Source of the DNA: Escherichia coli
GTDB lineage: Bacteria; Pseudomonadota; Gammaproteobacteria; Enterobacterales; Enterobacteriaceae
Assembly (NCBI RefSeq): GCF_050920415.1
Contig: NZ_CP169309.1
DNA length: 64,000 nt
Direction: 5' to 3' (one strand)
A program made the translations under genes and the position numbers. Positions 29,821 to 38,310 of the stretch are shown in pieces. The notes beneath the pieces are model-generated. The model was not told where the DNA came from. It did not search any database and saw only the letters and a list, made by a program, of their open reading frames with translations. The first letter of the stretch is position 1. Every line of letters begins with the position of its first letter.

Positions 29821-30513
29821 ATGCCACATCACATTGTTATTGTTGAAGATGAGCCGGTTACCCAGGCGCGATTACAAACCTACTTCACTCAGGAGGGGTA
29901 TACGGTTTCCGTTACGGCGAGCGGTGCCGGGCTGCGTGAAATTATGCAAAACCAGCCAGTGGATTTAATTCTGCTGGATATCAATTTGCCCGATGAAAAT
30001 GGCCTGATGTTAACCCGCGCCCTGCGGGAACGTTCGACGGTGGGTATTATTCTGGTTACCGGACGCAGCGATCGGATTGACCGTATTGTTGGGCTGGAAA
30101 TGGGCGCAGACGATTACGTCACCAAGCCGCTGGAACTGCGCGAACTGGTGGTACGGGTGAAAAATCTGCTCTGGCGAATCGACCTCGCGCGACAGGCTCA
30201 ACCGCTCACTCAGGACAACTGCTATCGCTTTGCCGGTTATTGCCTGAATGTGTCGCGCCATACGCTGGAGCTTGATGGCGAACCGATTAAACTAACCCGC
30301 GCAGAGTATGAAATGTTGGTGGCATTTGTGACCAATCCGGGCGAAATTCTCAGCCGTGAACGTCTGCTGCGTATGCTTTCTGCGCGCCGGGTGGAAAACC
30401 CCGACCTGCGCACCGTCGATGTGTTAATTCGTCGTTTACGTCATAAACTCAGCGCGGATTTACTGGTGACACAACATGGCGAAGGTTATTTCTTAGCCGC
30501 TGATGTGTGCTGA
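29821..30513 (+). CDS. torR: TorR, OmpR-family response regulator
   Basis: 230-aa ORF; receiver plus winged-helix domains; matches recalled TorR. Confidence 0.95.
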   Translation: MPHHIVIVEDEPVTQARLQTYFTQEGYTVSVTASGAGLREIMQNQPVDLILLDINLPDENGLMLTRALRERSTVGIILVTGRSDRIDRIVGLEMGADDYVTKPLELRELVVRVKNLLWRIDLARQAQPLTQDNCYRFAGYCLNVSRHTLELDGEPIKLTRAEYEMLVAFVTNPGEILSRERLLRMLSARRVENPDLRTVDVLIRRLRHKLSADLLVTQHGEGYFLAADVC

Positions 30514-31514
30514 TAAAAATAGACCGGACGAAATCCCCCTGGTGACAGCGAGCGGCGGATATGTTCGCGGTCGGCATTTTTCGGCGTCAGGACTAAAATC
30601 GGTGGGCTGACATTATCAGACACCGATTGTCCCTGTAATTGCCTGATCGCTTGCTCAACCGCCAGTTCCCCCTGCCAGACCATTTGATCGCTGGCAGCCA
30701 TAATCACTCTTCCCCGCTTCAACCCGCGATACACCTGATGTGAAAGATAAAACGACACCACGGTAAGCGGCGTTTTCAGGTTACGCCCTTCACCCATTGC
30801 CGCCTCTGCCGCAATCGCCGTTCCGGCCACAACGTCGATTTCTGGATGGCGCTCCAACATCTCCTGCAACAGGTTACGCTGGATTTCAATATCGTTGTCG
30901 CCGAGCGCAATATCGACAATACGCACCGGGCTTCCGGCAATGGCGGCGCGGAAACCCTCTACCATCTCCTTACTGCCCCCGGCGTTATCGGGGCCGGGCA
31001 TCAACAGCACGTTCAGTGGTTTTCCGTGACTCCATTGCACCAGATATCGCCCTGGTTGATAGCCCATCTGAAACCACGGCACACCAACGCGGCTTTTCAC
31101 CTGGGGAGCATCAATAGCATTTACCAGTTCGATCACCGGCAGACTTGCTACCTGCTTTTGCAGGTCGGGAAATGACGTCGTGCTACTACCGAGCAAAATG
31201 GCCTCTGCCCCCCACTGTTTGCACTGGTCGATTTGTGCTTGCTGGGTAGCCAACTGGCTGTAGCCGCCTGCCTCCAGCACTTTTAAATCCACACCGTAGC
31301 GGCGAGCAGCCTCCTGCATACCATAGTTCAACGATAACCAGTATGAATCTTTCAGGCTGGGATAAAGCGCGCACAGTTTCCATGAACGTTTGGCTTTAAG
31401 CGGTGTAGAGGGTTGCACCGAGAAATGCTGCGCATCATGCCAGCGCAACAAGTTATCAGCCGAAAATCCAGGCAACATGAAAAGGGAAAGAAGTAACAAT
31501 AGCAGTACGCGCAT
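30486..31514 (-). CDS. torT: TorT, periplasmic TMAO-binding protein
   Basis: 342-aa ORF with signal peptide; 3' end overlaps torR 3' end by 28 bp (convergent). Confidence 0.93.
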
Positions 31515-31596
31515 GATAGCCTCATCAATAATAAGGCTTTATGCTAGATGCATTCCGCTTTGCGACTCAACCTTTTTCACCTTAAGTACACTGACC

Positions 31597-34341
31597 GTGA
31601 ATTTAACCCTGACCCGAAGACTCTGGATGGGCTTTGCCCTGATGGCGCTGTTAACCCTGACCAGTACCCTGGTGGGATGGTACAACCTGCGATTTATCAG
31701 CCAGGTGGAAAAAGACAATACTCAGGCATTGATTCCTACCATGAATATGGCGCGCCAGTTGAGCGAAGCCAGCGCCTGGGAACTTTTCGCCGCACAGAAC
31801 CTGACCAGTGCCGATAACGAAAAGATGTGGCAGGCGCAGGGGCGAATGCTCACCGCACAAAGCCTGAAGATTAACGCGTTGCTGCAAGCGTTACGGGAAC
31901 AAGGTTTTGATACCACCGCTATTGAACAACAGGAGCAGGAGATCTCCCGTTCGTTACGTCAACAAGGGGAACTGGTGGGGCAGCGTTTGCAACTGCGCCA
32001 GCAACAACAGCAACTCAGCCAGCAGATAGTCGCTGCTGCCGATGAGATCGCACGCCTGGCACAAGGTCAGGCGAATAATGCGGCAACCTCCGCCGGAGCG
32101 ACCCAGGCTGGGATTTACGATTTGATCGAACAACATCAGCGTCAGGCCGCAGAAAACGCACTTGATCGGCTGATTGATATCGATCTTGAGTACGTTAACC
32201 AGATGAATGAACTGCGCCTTAGCGCCCTGCGGGTGCAGCAAATGGTGATGAATCTGGGGCTGGAACAGATCCAGAAAAATGCGCCAACGCTGGAAAAGCA
32301 GCTCAATAATGCGGTGAAAATTCTGCAACGTCGGCAAATACGCATTGAAGATCCGGGAGTTCGTGCTCAGGTCGCAACAACGTTAACTTCCGTTAGCCAA
32401 TATAGCGATTTGCTGGCGCTGTATCAGCAGGACAGTGAAATCAGCAATCACCTGCAAACTCTCGCCCAAAATAACATCGCCCAGTTCGCGCAGTTTAGTA
32501 GCGAAGTCAGTCAACTGGTCGACACCATTGAGCTGCGTAATCAGCATGGCCTGGCGCATCTGGAAAAAGCCAGTGCACGCGGGCAATACAGCCTGTTATT
32601 GCTGGGGATAGTTTCACTTTGTGCATTGATTCTGATCCTCTGGCGCGTAGTTTATCGCTCAGTCACGCGTCCACTTGCCGAACAAACGCAGGCGCTGCAA
32701 CGACTGCTGGACGGTGATATCGACTCCCCTTTTCCGGAAACCGCTGGCGTGCGGGAGCTGGACACCATCGGGCGGCTGATGGATGCGTTTCGCAGCAGTG
32801 TTCATGCGCTTAATCGCCACCGCGAACAGCTGGCGGCGCAGGTAAAAGCGCGCACAGCCGAATTGCAGGAATTGGTGGTCGAACATCGACAGGCACGGGC
32901 GGAAGCAGAAAAAGCCAGCCAGGCAAAATCGGCGTTTCTGGCGGCAATGAGCCATGAGATCCGCACACCGCTGTACGGTATTCTCGGCACCGCGCAACTG
33001 CTGGCGGATAATCCCGCACTTAATGCCCAGCGTGATGATTTGCGGGCAATTACTGACTCTGGTGAATCGTTGCTGACCATCCTTAACGACATTCTCGATT
33101 ATTCGGCTATCGAAGCGGGTGGCAAGAATGTTTCGGTCAGCGATGAGCCCTTTGAACCGCGCCCGCTGCTGGAAAGTACCCTGCAATTAATGAGCGGACG
33201 GGTGAAAGATCGCCCAATTCGCCTGGCAACGGCAATTGCCGACGATGTACCAACTGCGTTAATGGGCGATCCGCGACGAATTCGTCAGGTCATTACCAAC
33301 CTGTTGAGCAACGCCCTGCGTTTCACTGACGAAGGGCACATTATCCTGCGTAGTCGCACTGATGGCGAGCAATGGCTACTCGAAGTAGAAGACAGCGGCT
33401 GCGGTATTGATCCCGCGAAACTGGCAGAAATCTTCCAGCCATTTGTTCAGGTAAGCGGCAAACGCGGCGGCACCGGGCTGGGGCTGACTATCAGTAGCCG
33501 TCTGGCCCAGGCGATGGGTGGCGAACTGAGCGCCACCAGTACGCCGGAGGTTGGAAGCTGTTTTTGTTTACGCTTGCCGTTACGTATTGCCACGGCACCC
33601 GTGCCCAAAACAGTCAATCAGGCGGTACGTCTGGACGATTTGCGTTTGCTGTTAATTGAAGATAACCCGCTAACCCAGCGAATTACCGTCGAAATGCTGA
33701 ACACCAGTGGTGCGCAGGTCGTTGCGGTAGGAAATGCCGCGCAGGCAATAGATGCATTGCAAAATAGCGAACCGTTTGCTGCCGCACTGGTGGATTTTGA
33801 TCTGCCGGATATAGACGGCATTACCCTTGCCCGGCAACTGGCACAGCAATATCCGTCACTGGTTTTGATTGGCTTTAGCGCCCATGTCATCGACGAAACA
33901 CTGCGCCAGCGTACCAGTTCATTATTTCGCGGGATTATACCTAAACCGGTGCCGCGTGAAGTGCTCGGTCAGTTACTGGCGCACTATCTCCAACTGCAAG
34001 TCAATAACGATCAACCGTTGGATATATCGCAACTCAATGAAGATGCTCAGTTAATGGGAACAAAGAAGATCCACGAATGGCTGGCATTATTTAAACAACA
34101 TGCCCTGCCGCTTCTCGATGAAATCGACATTGCCCGCGCCAGTCAGGATAGCGAGAAAATAAAGCGTGCCGCGCATCAGCTAAAAAGCAGTTGCTCAAGT
34201 CTGGGAATGCGTAGCGCCAGCCAGTTATGCGCACAACTGGAGCAGCAGCCATTATCTGCCCCCCTTCCACACGAAGAAATTACACGCAGTGTTGCCGCTC
34301 TGGAAGCATGGTTGAATAAGAAAGACCTGAACGCGATTTGA
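31597..34341 (+). CDS. torS: TorS, hybrid sensor histidine kinase
   Basis: 914-aa frame from a GTG start ([19 protein letters not shown]); HisKA/HATPase, receiver and HPt regions; ORF-track maximum starts at 31390. Confidence 0.9.
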
Positions 34342-34412
34342 ATCAATATCAGCCAGTTAAGAACAACTAGAATAGTGGCATTTGGTATGCAACTTAACGG
34401 ACTGGCAAAATC

Positions 34413-35486
34413 ATGACAGAGAAAAGAAGAACCCGCTGGCAGCGGCGGCCAGGGACGACGGGCGGCAAATTACCGTGGAATGACTGGCGCAATGCCACGA
34501 CCTGGCGTAAAGCGACGCAATTATTACTGTTGGCAATTAATATTTATATTGCCATCACGTTCTGGTATTGGGTGCGCTATTACGAAACGGCAGGTAGTAC
34601 GACATTTGTCGCCAGGCCAGGAGGCATCGAAGGCTGGCTACCGATTGCCGGTCTGATGAATCTGAAATATAGCCTTGCAACAGGCCAGTTACCGTCCGTC
34701 CACGCCGCCGCGATGCTGTTATTGGTCGCTTTTATCGTCATCAGTCTATTACTAAAAAAGGCCTTTTGTTCATGGTTATGCCCGGTTGGTACGCTTTCTG
34801 AATTCATCGGCGATCTCGGTAACAAACTGTTTGGTCGGCAATTTGTCCTTCCCCGCTGTCTGGATATTCCTCTGCGCGGCGTGAAGTATTTGCTGTTGAG
34901 TTTTTTTCTCTATATCGCGTTATTGATGCCCGCTCAGGCTATTCACTATTTTATGTTGTCGCCCTACAGCGTGGTGATGGACGTTAAAATGCTCGATTTC
35001 TTTCGTCATATGGGGACATCGACATTAATCAGCGTGACCGTTTTGCTGATTGTCAGTCTGTTTATTCGCCATGCCTGGTGTCGTTATCTTTGCCCATATG
35101 GCGCGCTGATGGGCGTGGTTTCGCTATTGTCGCCGTTTAAGATTCGTCGCAATGCCGAAAGTTGTATCGACTGTGGCAAATGCGCAAAAAATTGCCCATC
35201 GCGGATCCCGGTCGATAAATTAATTCAGGTACGAACCGTGGAATGTACCGGTTGTATGACTTGCGTAGAGTCATGTCCGGTAGCCTCAACATTGACCTTT
35301 TCACTGCAAAAACCTGCGGCAAATAAAAAAGCCTTTGCGTTGTCTGGCTGGTTAATGACGCTACTGGTTCTGGGGATTATGTTTGCGGTGATTGGTTACG
35401 CAATGTATGCGGGAGTATGGCAAAGCCCGGTGCCGGAGGAATTGTACCGACGCTTAATTCCGCAAGCGCCAATGATTGGTCACTAA
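34413..35486 (+). CDS. yccM: YccM, predicted 4Fe-4S membrane protein
   Basis: 357-aa ORF with multiple TM segments and CxxCxxCxxxCP ferredoxin motifs. Confidence 0.88.
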   Translation: MTEKRRTRWQRRPGTTGGKLPWNDWRNATTWRKATQLLLLAINIYIAITFWYWVRYYETAGSTTFVARPGGIEGWLPIAGLMNLKYSLATGQLPSVHAAAMLLLVAFIVISLLLKKAFCSWLCPVGTLSEFIGDLGNKLFGRQFVLPRCLDIPLRGVKYLLLSFFLYIALLMPAQAIHYFMLSPYSVVMDVKMLDFFRHMGTSTLISVTVLLIVSLFIRHAWCRYLCPYGALMGVVSLLSPFKIRRNAESCIDCGKCAKNCPSRIPVDKLIQVRTVECTGCMTCVESCPVASTLTFSLQKPAANKKAFALSGWLMTLLVLGIMFAVIGYAMYAGVWQSPVPEELYRRLIPQAPMIGH

Positions 35487-35534
35487 ATTAGCAACAAGCG
35501 GAACATCACCTCGCACGGGGTGATGTTCACAAAA

Positions 35535-35708
35535 TCACATTATTTTGATTTTGACATCATAGCTTTCAAGCCCGGTCATTTTTTCTCGTGCGGTGAAGCG
35601 AATTTCAGAGACTTCTTTCCCTGTATTCTTGTTCAGCTCGGCGATTTTTTGCGCGATAAAGTCAGCGATTTCCGTTTCGGCTTGTTTTTTTAACTCTTCA
35701 ATATTCAC
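35535..35708 (-). CDS. gnsB: GnsB-like small protein (57 aa)
   Basis: hand translation from a GTG start gives VNIEELKKQAETEIADFIAQKIAELNKNTGKEVSEIRFTAREKMTGLESYDVKIKIM, Gns family; RBS gagg upstream; not in the ORF track. Confidence 0.65.
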   Translation of the reverse strand: MNIEELKKQAETEIADFIAQKIAELNKNTGKEVSEIRFTAREKMTGLESYDVKIKIM

Positions 35709-35928
35709 TGTTAACCTCTTCTGGTCTTAAAAGACAGCAACACGCCAGTAAGGTGTTGGTTCCCGGTACCCTGGTCAGGTAAGAAATGTTATAAGCCATC
35801 TCCCCTAAAGATTCAATAATCAACAGGTTATCGCTTACTATACATACAGCGTTAAAGAAAAATAAGGCAGATATAAAAAAGGCTCCACGAGGGAGCCTAA
35901 TCTTATTTTGTGAAATCCAGCGGCGCAT
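35698..35928 (-). CDS. ymcE: YmcE/Sfa-like small membrane protein (76 aa)
   Basis: frame from MRRWISQNKIRLPRGAFFISALFFF; position between gnsB and cspG as in K-12. Confidence 0.55.
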   Translation of the reverse strand: MRRWISQNKIRLPRGAFFISALFFFNAVCIVSDNLLIIESLGEMAYNISYLTRVPGTNTLLACCCLLRPEEVNSEY

Positions 35929-36101
35929 GGTCAGTGCGTATTTGCAGCGCGACGTTATCAAAGGTGATCATCGTCGATTTACAAAAAATACACTTTGCCC
36001 CTAAAGGATTTCGCTCCGTCACATCGAATGCCGATGTGCGGTACTGTGAACCATGACAACATGGACAGCGGAAATGGAGATGTTGAGTAATAACGGCAAC
36101 C

Positions 36102-36314
36102 TTAGAGCGTAACAACGTTCGCTGCCGCGGGACCACGTTGCCCCTGCTCAATAGAAAATTCAACTTTCTGATTTTCGTTCAGCGTGCGGAATTCATTGCT
36201 CTGGATGGCGGTGAAATGGACGAAAACGTCTTTGCTGCCATCATCAGGAGTGATAAAGCCAAAACCTTTATCTGCGTTAAACCATTTTACTAAACCAGTC
36301 ATTTTATTAGACAT
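36102..36314 (-). CDS. cspG: CspG, cold shock protein
   Basis: 70-aa [24 protein letters not shown]... with CSD RNP motifs. Confidence 0.95.
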
Positions 36315-36599
36315 ATTTTACTTCCTTCATTTTGGGCCTTTCGGCAAACAGGGCTTTAATACAGAAACTACTTAGTGTTCAGGAGAGAGACTCAAAAGAA
36401 GGGGATAATGCCTGATAATGAGAACTGCTTTAGTAAACTACTTTGTATGCTGTCTGTCTTTCAAACCGACGCAGCTATTAACGCATGATAATTGAGATTA
36501 AGCAATTTTTATTTTAGCCGTCCGGCGGTCTTAAATATCGCTGGCTTTATTTTATTAACCCCGTATAGTGCAGCGCAGTATTTTCAGTAAGGAATTTGT

Positions 36600-36812
36600 T
36601 TGTCCCGTAAAATGACAGGAATTGTCAAAACCTTTGATCGCAAAAGCGGCAAAGGATTCATTATCCCCTCCGACGGTCGTAAAGAAGTCCAGGTCCATAT
36701 TTCCGCATTCACTCCCCGCGACGCAGAAGTGCTTATACCAGGATTACGCGTGGAATTTTGCCGCGTAAATGGCCTACGCGGACCAACAGCGGCAAATGTT
36801 TATCTCTCTTAA
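36600..36812 (+). CDS. cspH: CspH, cold shock-like protein
   Basis: 70-aa CSD protein; begins with TTG at 36600 (internal ATG at 36612); RBS aaggaa. Confidence 0.85.
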
Positions 36813-37253
36813 GATGACGCAGCTTGTTTAAAGCTGGCTGTTTTTATTAAAAAAGCTCAATAGTCAACATCGCACATTATAACAAAAGTTACTTTCACCC
36901 CAGAAAACAAATCCATTTAGCCGAATATCTCTGCACCTAATAGTTATAAATGCTACTTAACAGTCAATCATAGTACCGCTTGAAACTATATCACCAACAA
37001 TAGTTAATAGCTTTCTTAACAATTTTCTTATCTTTAATTTGTATTTTTCTAAGATTTATCTTATGCTCACAAGTCGTATTTCCAGAGGGAAATCGTTAAC
37101 AATCTTATATTTCTCTCTGCGCGCCTTTCCCACTCGCGGTATATAGTACCGACGGTATGCGGAAAGGGAGATTTCACAAGGATGTTATACTCAAAGTAGA
37201 CAATCCTGATCTCAAGCGTACGTATTGTCCATGCGATGAATAAAGGAAAAGTT

Positions 37254-37665: not shown

Positions 37666-38310
37666 GTGCGCCCTCTTATTTTATCGATTTTCGCACTATT
37701 TCTTGCGGGATGTACACACAGCCAGCAAAGTATGGTCGATACATTTCGCGCCAGCCTTTTCGATAATCAGGATATCACCGTAGCGGATCAGCAGATCCAG
37801 GCGTTGCCTTATTCCACGATGTATTTACGCCTTAATGAAGGGCAACGAATCTTTGTGGTACTGGGATATATAGAACAAGAACAAAGCAAATGGTTATCCC
37901 AGGATAACGCCATGCTGGTTACCCACAATGGACGTCTTTTAAAAACCGTCAAACTTAATAATAATCTGCTGGAAGTGACAAATTCCGGGCAGGACCCTCT
38001 GCGTAACGCGCTGGCAATAAAAGACGGCAGCCGCTGGACGCGCGATATTCTCTGGAGTGAAGACAATCATTTTCGCTCTGCGACCCTGAGTTCCACTTTT
38101 TCCTTTGCTGGATTAGAGACGCTGAATATTGCGGGTCGCGATGTGCTGTGTAATGTCTGGCAGGAAGAGGTGACTTCCACGCTGCCAGAAAAACAGTGGC
38201 AAAACACATTCTGGGTCGATTCGGCTACTGGCCAGGTTCGTCAAAGTCGGCAAATGTTAGGCGCAGGGGTTATTCCCGTAGAAATGACGTTTCTTAAACC
38301 CGCACCATGA
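37666..38310 (+). CDS. gfcB: GfcB lipoprotein
   Basis: 214-aa ORF with lipobox LFLAGC. Confidence 0.9.
   Translation: MRPLILSIFALFLAGCTHSQQSMVDTFRASLFDNQDITVADQQIQALPYSTMYLRLNEGQRIFVVLGYIEQEQSKWLSQDNAMLVTHNGRLLKTVKLNNNLLEVTNSGQDPLRNALAIKDGSRWTRDILWSEDNHFRSATLSSTFSFAGLETLNIAGRDVLCNVWQEEVTSTLPEKQWQNTFWVDSATGQVRQSRQMLGAGVIPVEMTFLKPAP

Follow-up and report, generated by a model that had tools for sequence, protein, structure and literature searches.

Comparative support for the annotated GTG, GTG and TTG start codons of torS, gnsA and cspH in Escherichia coli

This study concerns the translation starts of three genes, torS, gnsA and cspH, which lie close together in a 64,000-nucleotide stretch of Escherichia coli chromosomal DNA (contig NZ_CP169309.1 of assembly GCF_050920415.1; this whole stretch is the window referred to below). 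With a probability of about 0.9, they are ordinary E. coli genes which start at GTG, GTG and TTG, respectively. Their non-ATG starts are already known, being present in the curated K-12 and RefSeq annotation, and sequence comparisons that do not depend on annotation make a strong case for each of them. An earlier note on the same DNA had proposed GTG 31597 for torS, GTG 35708 for a gene that it named gnsB, and TTG 36600 for cspH, and exactly these starts are used by the Prokaryotic Genome Annotation Pipeline (PGAP) and by the curated record of K-12 MG1655 (Table 1). Neither source places any of the three starts at an upstream in-frame codon. The name gnsB is a misassignment, and both sequence identity and gene context identify the gene as gnsA.

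The annotation sources compared were the curated K-12 MG1655 record and the RefSeq PGAP annotation of E. coli MFDS1022581 (NZ_CP169399.1), a strain which is 100% identical to the window over the ~5.7 kb around the three starts. The same ~5.7 kb show 95-99% identity to nearly all of 5,426 complete E. coli genomes. The gene set and the lengths of the products are the same in the K-12 record (TorS 914 aa, GnsA 57 aa, CspH 70 aa), and in the extracted sequences the start contexts of all three genes are identical, or nearly so, between the window and K-12. A genuine non-AUG start is expected to show a near-cognate codon at the upstream edge of protein-level conservation, with any extension further upstream excluded, and this pattern is found in torS, gnsA and cspH alike. 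Translation of all three would accordingly begin at a near-cognate codon that is read by the initiator fMet-tRNA.

The product of cspH matches the NF012008 equivalog over residues 1-70 of 70 (176.1 bits; cut-off 141), the cold-shock domain PF00313 spans residues 5-69, and residue 1 is aligned at the start of the CspH, CspF, CspA and CspG profiles. An in-frame TAA (36588-36590) lies four codons 5' of the TTG, and therefore only TTG 36600 or ATG 36612 can serve as start. Ten CspH/CspF genes were compared, namely the cspH of the window, K-12 cspF and homologues from Salmonella, phage PHB10, Raoultella, Edwardsiella, Shimwellia, Kluyvera, Yokenella and Serratia. None of the ten (eight genera plus the phage) departs from the TTG, and all carry a Shine-Dalgarno (SD) sequence (AAGGA, AGGAA or AAGG variants) at a constant distance from it, with a 6-nt spacer of variable sequence. 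The differences within codons 2-4 are synonymous or conservative (TCC/TCT/TCA, CGT/CGC, AAA/AGA), and no stop or indel interrupts these codons in any of the ten genes. Read from the TTG, the protein begins with MSRKMTG, in agreement with the MSNKMTG of the ATG-initiated CspB, CspG and CspI. This N-terminus includes Lys4, a conserved N-terminal residue of cold-shock proteins (PMC11648934), which exists in CspH only with the TTG start. Within the species, a 31-mer covering SD, TTG and the downstream ATG is found exactly in 5,364 of the 5,426 genomes, and its ATG-for-TTG variant in none of them.

Two side observations concern the same genes. Each of the ten CspH/CspF genes has a -10-like hexamer (TATAGT, TATACT or TATAAT) ~30 nt 5' of its TTG, at 36564-36569 (+) in the window, which implies a short leader of ~24 nt. 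In phage Tritos, a cspF-like gene is unannotated, carries CTG in place of the TTG and contains internal stops; it is probably a decaying copy.

The 57-aa protein encoded from 35708 matches K-12 GnsA at every residue past the start codon and shows 66.7% identity to K-12 GnsB. The gene is present in a single copy in the window, in the order yccM-gnsA-ymcE-ymcF-cspG. K-12 gnsB (b1550) lies in the Qin prophage beside ynfN and ydfO and starts at ATG, and this identification was rejected because context and sequence differ. The GnsA/GnsB family profile PF08178 aligns from end to end with the N-terminus of the protein (residues 1-54 at profile positions 1-54 of 54; 122.3 bits, cut-off 27), and the crystallised 'Protein GnsA' (PDB 4xo1, 4xo2) has the same residues 1-57 as the product encoded in the window. 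All full-length family members inspected share the N-terminus MNIE(E/D)LK, and the open reading frame (ORF) offers no further canonical start before residue 44. Longer predicted proteins of the family result from C-terminal read-through, from a fusion with ymcE or, in gnsB-type genes, from a start called too far upstream; in no case is sequence added 5' of the gnsA GTG. At the position of this GTG, an ATG is found in gnsB (K-12 Qin prophage and phages), in three Citrobacter loci and in two Franconibacter loci, and (A)GAGG is conserved 5-6 nt upstream in the gnsB, Citrobacter and Franconibacter homologues. The 31-mer around the gnsA start occurs exactly in 4,833 of the 5,426 E. coli genomes, none of which has the ATG variant. 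The start codon is embedded in the final 11 nt of the ymcE ORF as annotated, an arrangement that would allow the two genes to be translationally coupled, provided that ymcE is translated.

The identity of TorS is given by the NF008543 equivalog (1896.5 bits, cut-off 982; residues 1-913 at profile positions 1-913 of 914) and by TIGR02956 (956 bits, cut-off 676.5), in which residue 5 is aligned at profile position 2. Residues 34-320 are covered by the solved sensor domain (PDB 3i9w, 'Sensor protein torS'), and the gene lies in the context torD-torA-torC / torR / torT / torS. The in-frame comparison covered ten torS loci of other genomes. The GTG is kept in E. albertii, E. whittamii, further E. 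coli, one Citrobacter and three records titled Providencia, and several relatives have in-frame stops 2 to 13 codons 5' of it. The Salmonella enterica subspecies arizonae and diarizonae have TAA ATG TCA ACG CC. TCA CTG ACC CGC AGA TTA TGG CTG here: after a stop, one codon before the position of the GTG, comes an ATG, and the internal ATG 31627 of E. coli corresponds to CTG. The nine codons between GTG and ATG 31627 encode NLTLTRRLW, NLSLTRRLW or TPSLTRRLW, and their differences are largely synonymous (CGA/AGA, AGA/CGA, CTC/CTG/TTG, ACC/ACT). Since the protein is kept through synonymous changes, these codons are translated. A boundary of conservation is also visible within E. coli: 5,403 of 5,426 genomes contain the 31-mer from -3 to +28 (and none its ATG variant), in contrast to the 31-mer from -15 to +16 of the window, which is found in only 22 genomes, as the 15 nt 5' of the GTG are polymorphic. 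The common downstream and rare upstream 31-mers thus place the edge of conservation at the GTG.

These data bear directly on two other possible starts of torS. The first, for which we see next to no chance, is that the maximal ORF is real and the gene begins at the upstream in-frame TTG 31390, ATG 31477 or ATG 31513. Indeed, no stop closes the upstream frame in the window, in E. albertii or in one other E. coli. In-frame stops nevertheless occur in the segment 31390-31596 in Citrobacter, the Providencia-titled records, Salmonella, E. coli E69 and E. whittamii, and in two genomes foreign DNA takes the place of this segment. Furthermore, the ORF from TTG 31390 would overlap the divergent torT by 125 nt, the segment being the reverse strand of the region that encodes the TorT signal peptide. 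None of the three upstream codons is preceded by an SD, and the TorS profile models begin at GTG 31597. The extension 31390-31596 (+) was therefore rejected as refuted by the comparative data.

The second alternative, a downstream start at ATG 31627-31629 which would yield 904 aa, is highly improbable as well. This ATG is the first in the conserved part of the ORF, and the GTG upstream of it has no SD. The ATG has none either (-1.0 kcal/mol), and in Salmonella arizonae and diarizonae it is replaced by CTG, so that TorS must begin there at the ATG adjoining the GTG position. The nine intervening codons, kept as protein by synonymous substitutions, and the alignment of TIGR02956 from residue 5 likewise argue for the GTG. 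A start at ATG 31627 would also drop the Arg-Arg that precedes transmembrane helix 1; with the GTG start, these two arginines would be placed on the cytoplasmic side, before the helix, as the positive-inside rule predicts. A length of 904 aa is presumably the one originally published for TorS; a text search for this length returned nothing relevant, and the single sign of a change in the annotation is the version-2 protein accession NP_415513.2. Local mRNA folding is uninformative (-6.5 kcal/mol in the window around the GTG vs -9.4 and -12.2 kcal/mol at the downstream ATGs). A promoter scan of the torT-torS intergenic region gave no match to the sigma-70 consensus and does not constrain the 5' end of torS.

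Two further features of the torS locus were observed. An island of ~4.6-5.6 kb that carries a phage-type integrase separates torT from torS in E. coli E69 and E. whittamii. Its junction corresponds to positions ~31572-31586 of the window, 11-25 nt 5' of the GTG, and ~10-15 nt are duplicated there, which suggests an integration site; insertion here would cut torS off from the DNA that natively precedes it. In these two genomes, neither the GTG nor the coding sequence is changed. In the three Providencia-titled records, the N-terminal third of TorS is 72% identical to that of E. coli, compared with 64-65% for Salmonella arizonae. Their torT-torS locus could reflect horizontal transfer or mislabelled assemblies.

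Several observations weigh against the three non-ATG starts or reduce the support for them. The profile models and the PGAP starts depend in part on the K-12 annotation. No entry for torS, gnsA or cspH was found in the tables of tetracycline ribosome profiling (TetRP), which list revised sites only, in TRAINSPOTTER or in the supplements of Stringer et al. The earlier note had described a plausible ribosome-binding site for each gene; pairing with the anti-SD sequence 5-9 nt upstream bears this out for gnsA (-6.5 kcal/mol) and cspH (-6.1 kcal/mol) but not for torS, where the best pairing 5' of the GTG is -0.9 kcal/mol and no SD is recognisable. Because of this, it is the comparative evidence that has to carry the torS start. 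Weak initiation would be in keeping with a sensor kinase that is required in few copies. For cspH, the in-frame ATG at +12 is as invariant as the TTG in the ten CspH/CspF genes, and the profiling signal of the paralogue cspF is stronger at +12 than at the TTG in two of the three samples (PMC4909307 Table S2).

The two points on cspH belong to an alternative that we regard as unlikely, although it deserves to be weighed, namely that cspH is translated wholly or partly from ATG 36612 (66 aa, MTGIVK), the TTG being either no start or one of two. That this ATG is the sole start is far less probable still. In the TetRP data, cspF is listed as '+12 ATG, multiple', with signals of 94 and 75 at +12 vs 47 and 0 at the TTG (PMC4909307 Table S2). 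However, the positional resolution of the method is limited by its authors' own account (PMC4909307), and between -1 and +38, counted from the TTG, cspF and cspH have the same sequence (~40 nt), so that the +12 reads may not map uniquely. Many predicted family members outside NCBI (ENA, Logan, JGI) are 66 aa long, the one inspected starting at the +12 Met, and the annotation of phage PHB10 also starts there. Against this, the ATG has no SD in range (+0.4 kcal/mol; the AAGGA is 18 nt away), the TTG is invariant despite the variable spacer that adjoins it, and codons 2-4 behave as coding sequence, with Lys4 conserved. The +12 Met is also conserved internally in CspB, CspG and CspI, whose ATG start lies four codons upstream, and its invariance therefore needs no start function.

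Initiation at TTG 36600, as at the two GTG codons, thus remains the reading we favour, and its consequences are mainly a matter of annotation hygiene, with little significance beyond. The earlier note had called the maximal ORFs over-extended, which applies to torS (from 31390) and not to gnsA and cspH, where no canonical start codon lies between the in-frame stop and the GTG or TTG. Both the naive longest-ORF call (torS from 31390) and calls that prefer ATG (66-aa CspH/CspF, 904-aa TorS) are wrong or incomplete. We infer the N-termini of TorS, GnsA and CspH in vivo, and any reason for keeping the weak codons, from these comparisons. CspH and CspF could each have two N-terminal proteoforms.

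The three starts listed by the earlier note hold, but the list overlooked the annotated ATT start of ymcF (36091, minus strand), the rarest start codon there. This ATT is located 10 nt past the cspG stop, and PF23641 aligns over residues 1-62 of 62 of YmcF. It is kept in Escherichia spp. (E. albertii, E. whittamii), in K-12 ynfQ and in a Citrobacter prophage. In ynfQ, an in-frame TAG lies 8 codons upstream, with no ATG, GTG or TTG in between, and a non-canonical start is therefore required there. D'Lima et al. 2017 (J Proteome Res 16:3722) is reportedly the experimental source for ymcF. The neighbouring ymcE shows little conservation (55% identity in E. coli E69, two high-scoring segment pairs in E. 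whittamii), whereas the flanking gnsA and ymcF are 91-98% identical in the same comparison. A terminator-like hairpin with a T-run (AGGCTCCCTCGTGGAGCCT TTTTT) is also present at 35880-35898 (-), directly past the ymcF stop and inside ymcE. The hairpin and the low identity raise doubt about ymcE as a conserved protein-coding gene.

Non-ATG starts are annotated for 6 of the 64 coding sequences (CDS) of the window, namely torS (GTG), gnsA (GTG), ymcF (ATT), cspH (TTG), gfcB (GTG) and one hypothetical gene (GTG), and four of these six fall within the seven consecutive genes from torS to cspH. At an assumed genome-wide non-ATG rate of ~18%, a post-hoc binomial test gives P = 0.023 for the cluster, and 0.12 if only torS, gnsA and cspH are counted. 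The cspH TTG and the ymcF ATT are shared with the Qin prophage paralogues cspF and ynfQ, and are thus inherited and do not represent independent events. The grouping of non-ATG starts in this part of the window was consequently not accepted as meaningful, the signal being mild and post hoc (P ~0.02-0.1) and the cspH and ymcF starts being shared by paralogues.

A related and rather speculative idea, to which we give little credence, is that the weak start codons of this cold-shock island are selected and possibly regulatory, acting through start discrimination by initiation factor 3 (IF3) or through termination-reinitiation coupling, and that cspH and cspF possibly yield proteoforms of 70 and 66 aa. 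The TTG of cspH/cspF is never replaced by ATG in eight genera, nor with the same flanks in the 5,426 E. coli genomes. If the idea were true, the two forms would differ in the N-terminal Lys4, which is implicated in the target specificity of cold-shock proteins.

Elsewhere in the window, the arrangement differs from K-12 between cspH and gfcA, where K-12 carries IS1D; this element is absent from the window (36813-37253) and from MFDS1022581. Past a tRNA-Ser gene, the region 55292-57869 contains an Ail/Lom fragment, a frameshifted hypothetical gene, tRNA-Gly and tRNA-Arg genes on the opposite strand and an integrase fragment, and by its annotation is island or prophage debris.

Table 1. Genes and start-site elements of the torT-cspH region and further non-ATG genes, in positions of the window, with K-12 MG1655 start positions where given.
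Feature	Position	Strand	Start codon and remarks	Source	K-12 start
torT	30486-31514	-	divergent from torS	PGAP	
torS CDS, 914 aa	31597-34341	+	GTG 31597-31599	PGAP and K-12 record	GTG 1,056,178 (minus)
yccM	34413-35486	+		PGAP	
gnsA CDS, 57 aa	35535-35708	-	GTG 35708-35706	PGAP and K-12 record	GTG 1,052,067 (plus)
gnsA Shine-Dalgarno AAGAGG	35715-35720	-	6-nt spacer to GTG; anti-SD duplex -6.5 kcal/mol; inside ymcE 3' end		
ymcE CDS, 76 aa	35698-35928	-	ATG; NF007379 equivalog match	PGAP	
ymcF CDS, 62 aa	35903-36091	-	annotated ATT 36091-36089	PGAP and K-12 record	
cspG CDS, 70 aa	36102-36314	-	ATG	PGAP	
cspH Shine-Dalgarno AAGGA	36589-36593	+	6-nt spacer to TTG; -6.1 kcal/mol; overlaps TAA 36588-36590		
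cspH CDS, 70 aa	36600-36812	+	TTG 36600-36602	PGAP and K-12 record	TTG 1,051,175 (minus)
In-frame ATG four codons into cspH	36612-36614	+	possible secondary start of a 66-aa form; invariant, without SD		
gfcB CDS	37666-38310	+	GTG 37666		
Hypothetical protein CDS, 97 aa	57341-57634	+	GTG 57341		

The genes discussed here closely resemble known counterparts. The ATT-initiated small proteins YmcF and YnfQ are encoded at the same locus relative to a csp gene, with the annotated ATT conserved 10 nt past the csp stop codon. The Qin paralogue cspF (b1558) is like cspH in its TTG, in the spacing of its SD and in the first 38 nt of the coding sequence, and the two proteins share 75.7% identity; K-12 cspH itself (b0989) has a start context identical to that in the window. 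K-12 gnsA (b4517, YP_588446.1) agrees with the gnsA of the window in the 57-aa protein, the 30 nt upstream, the GTG and the overlap with the ymcE 3' end, with no notable difference. Finally, K-12 torS (b0993, NP_415513.2), which encodes the TMAO sensor kinase, shares with the torS of the window its synteny (torR-torT / torS-yccM), the GTG, the length of 914 aa and the first 22 residues, and differs from it only by strain-level substitutions and by the polymorphic non-coding bases upstream.

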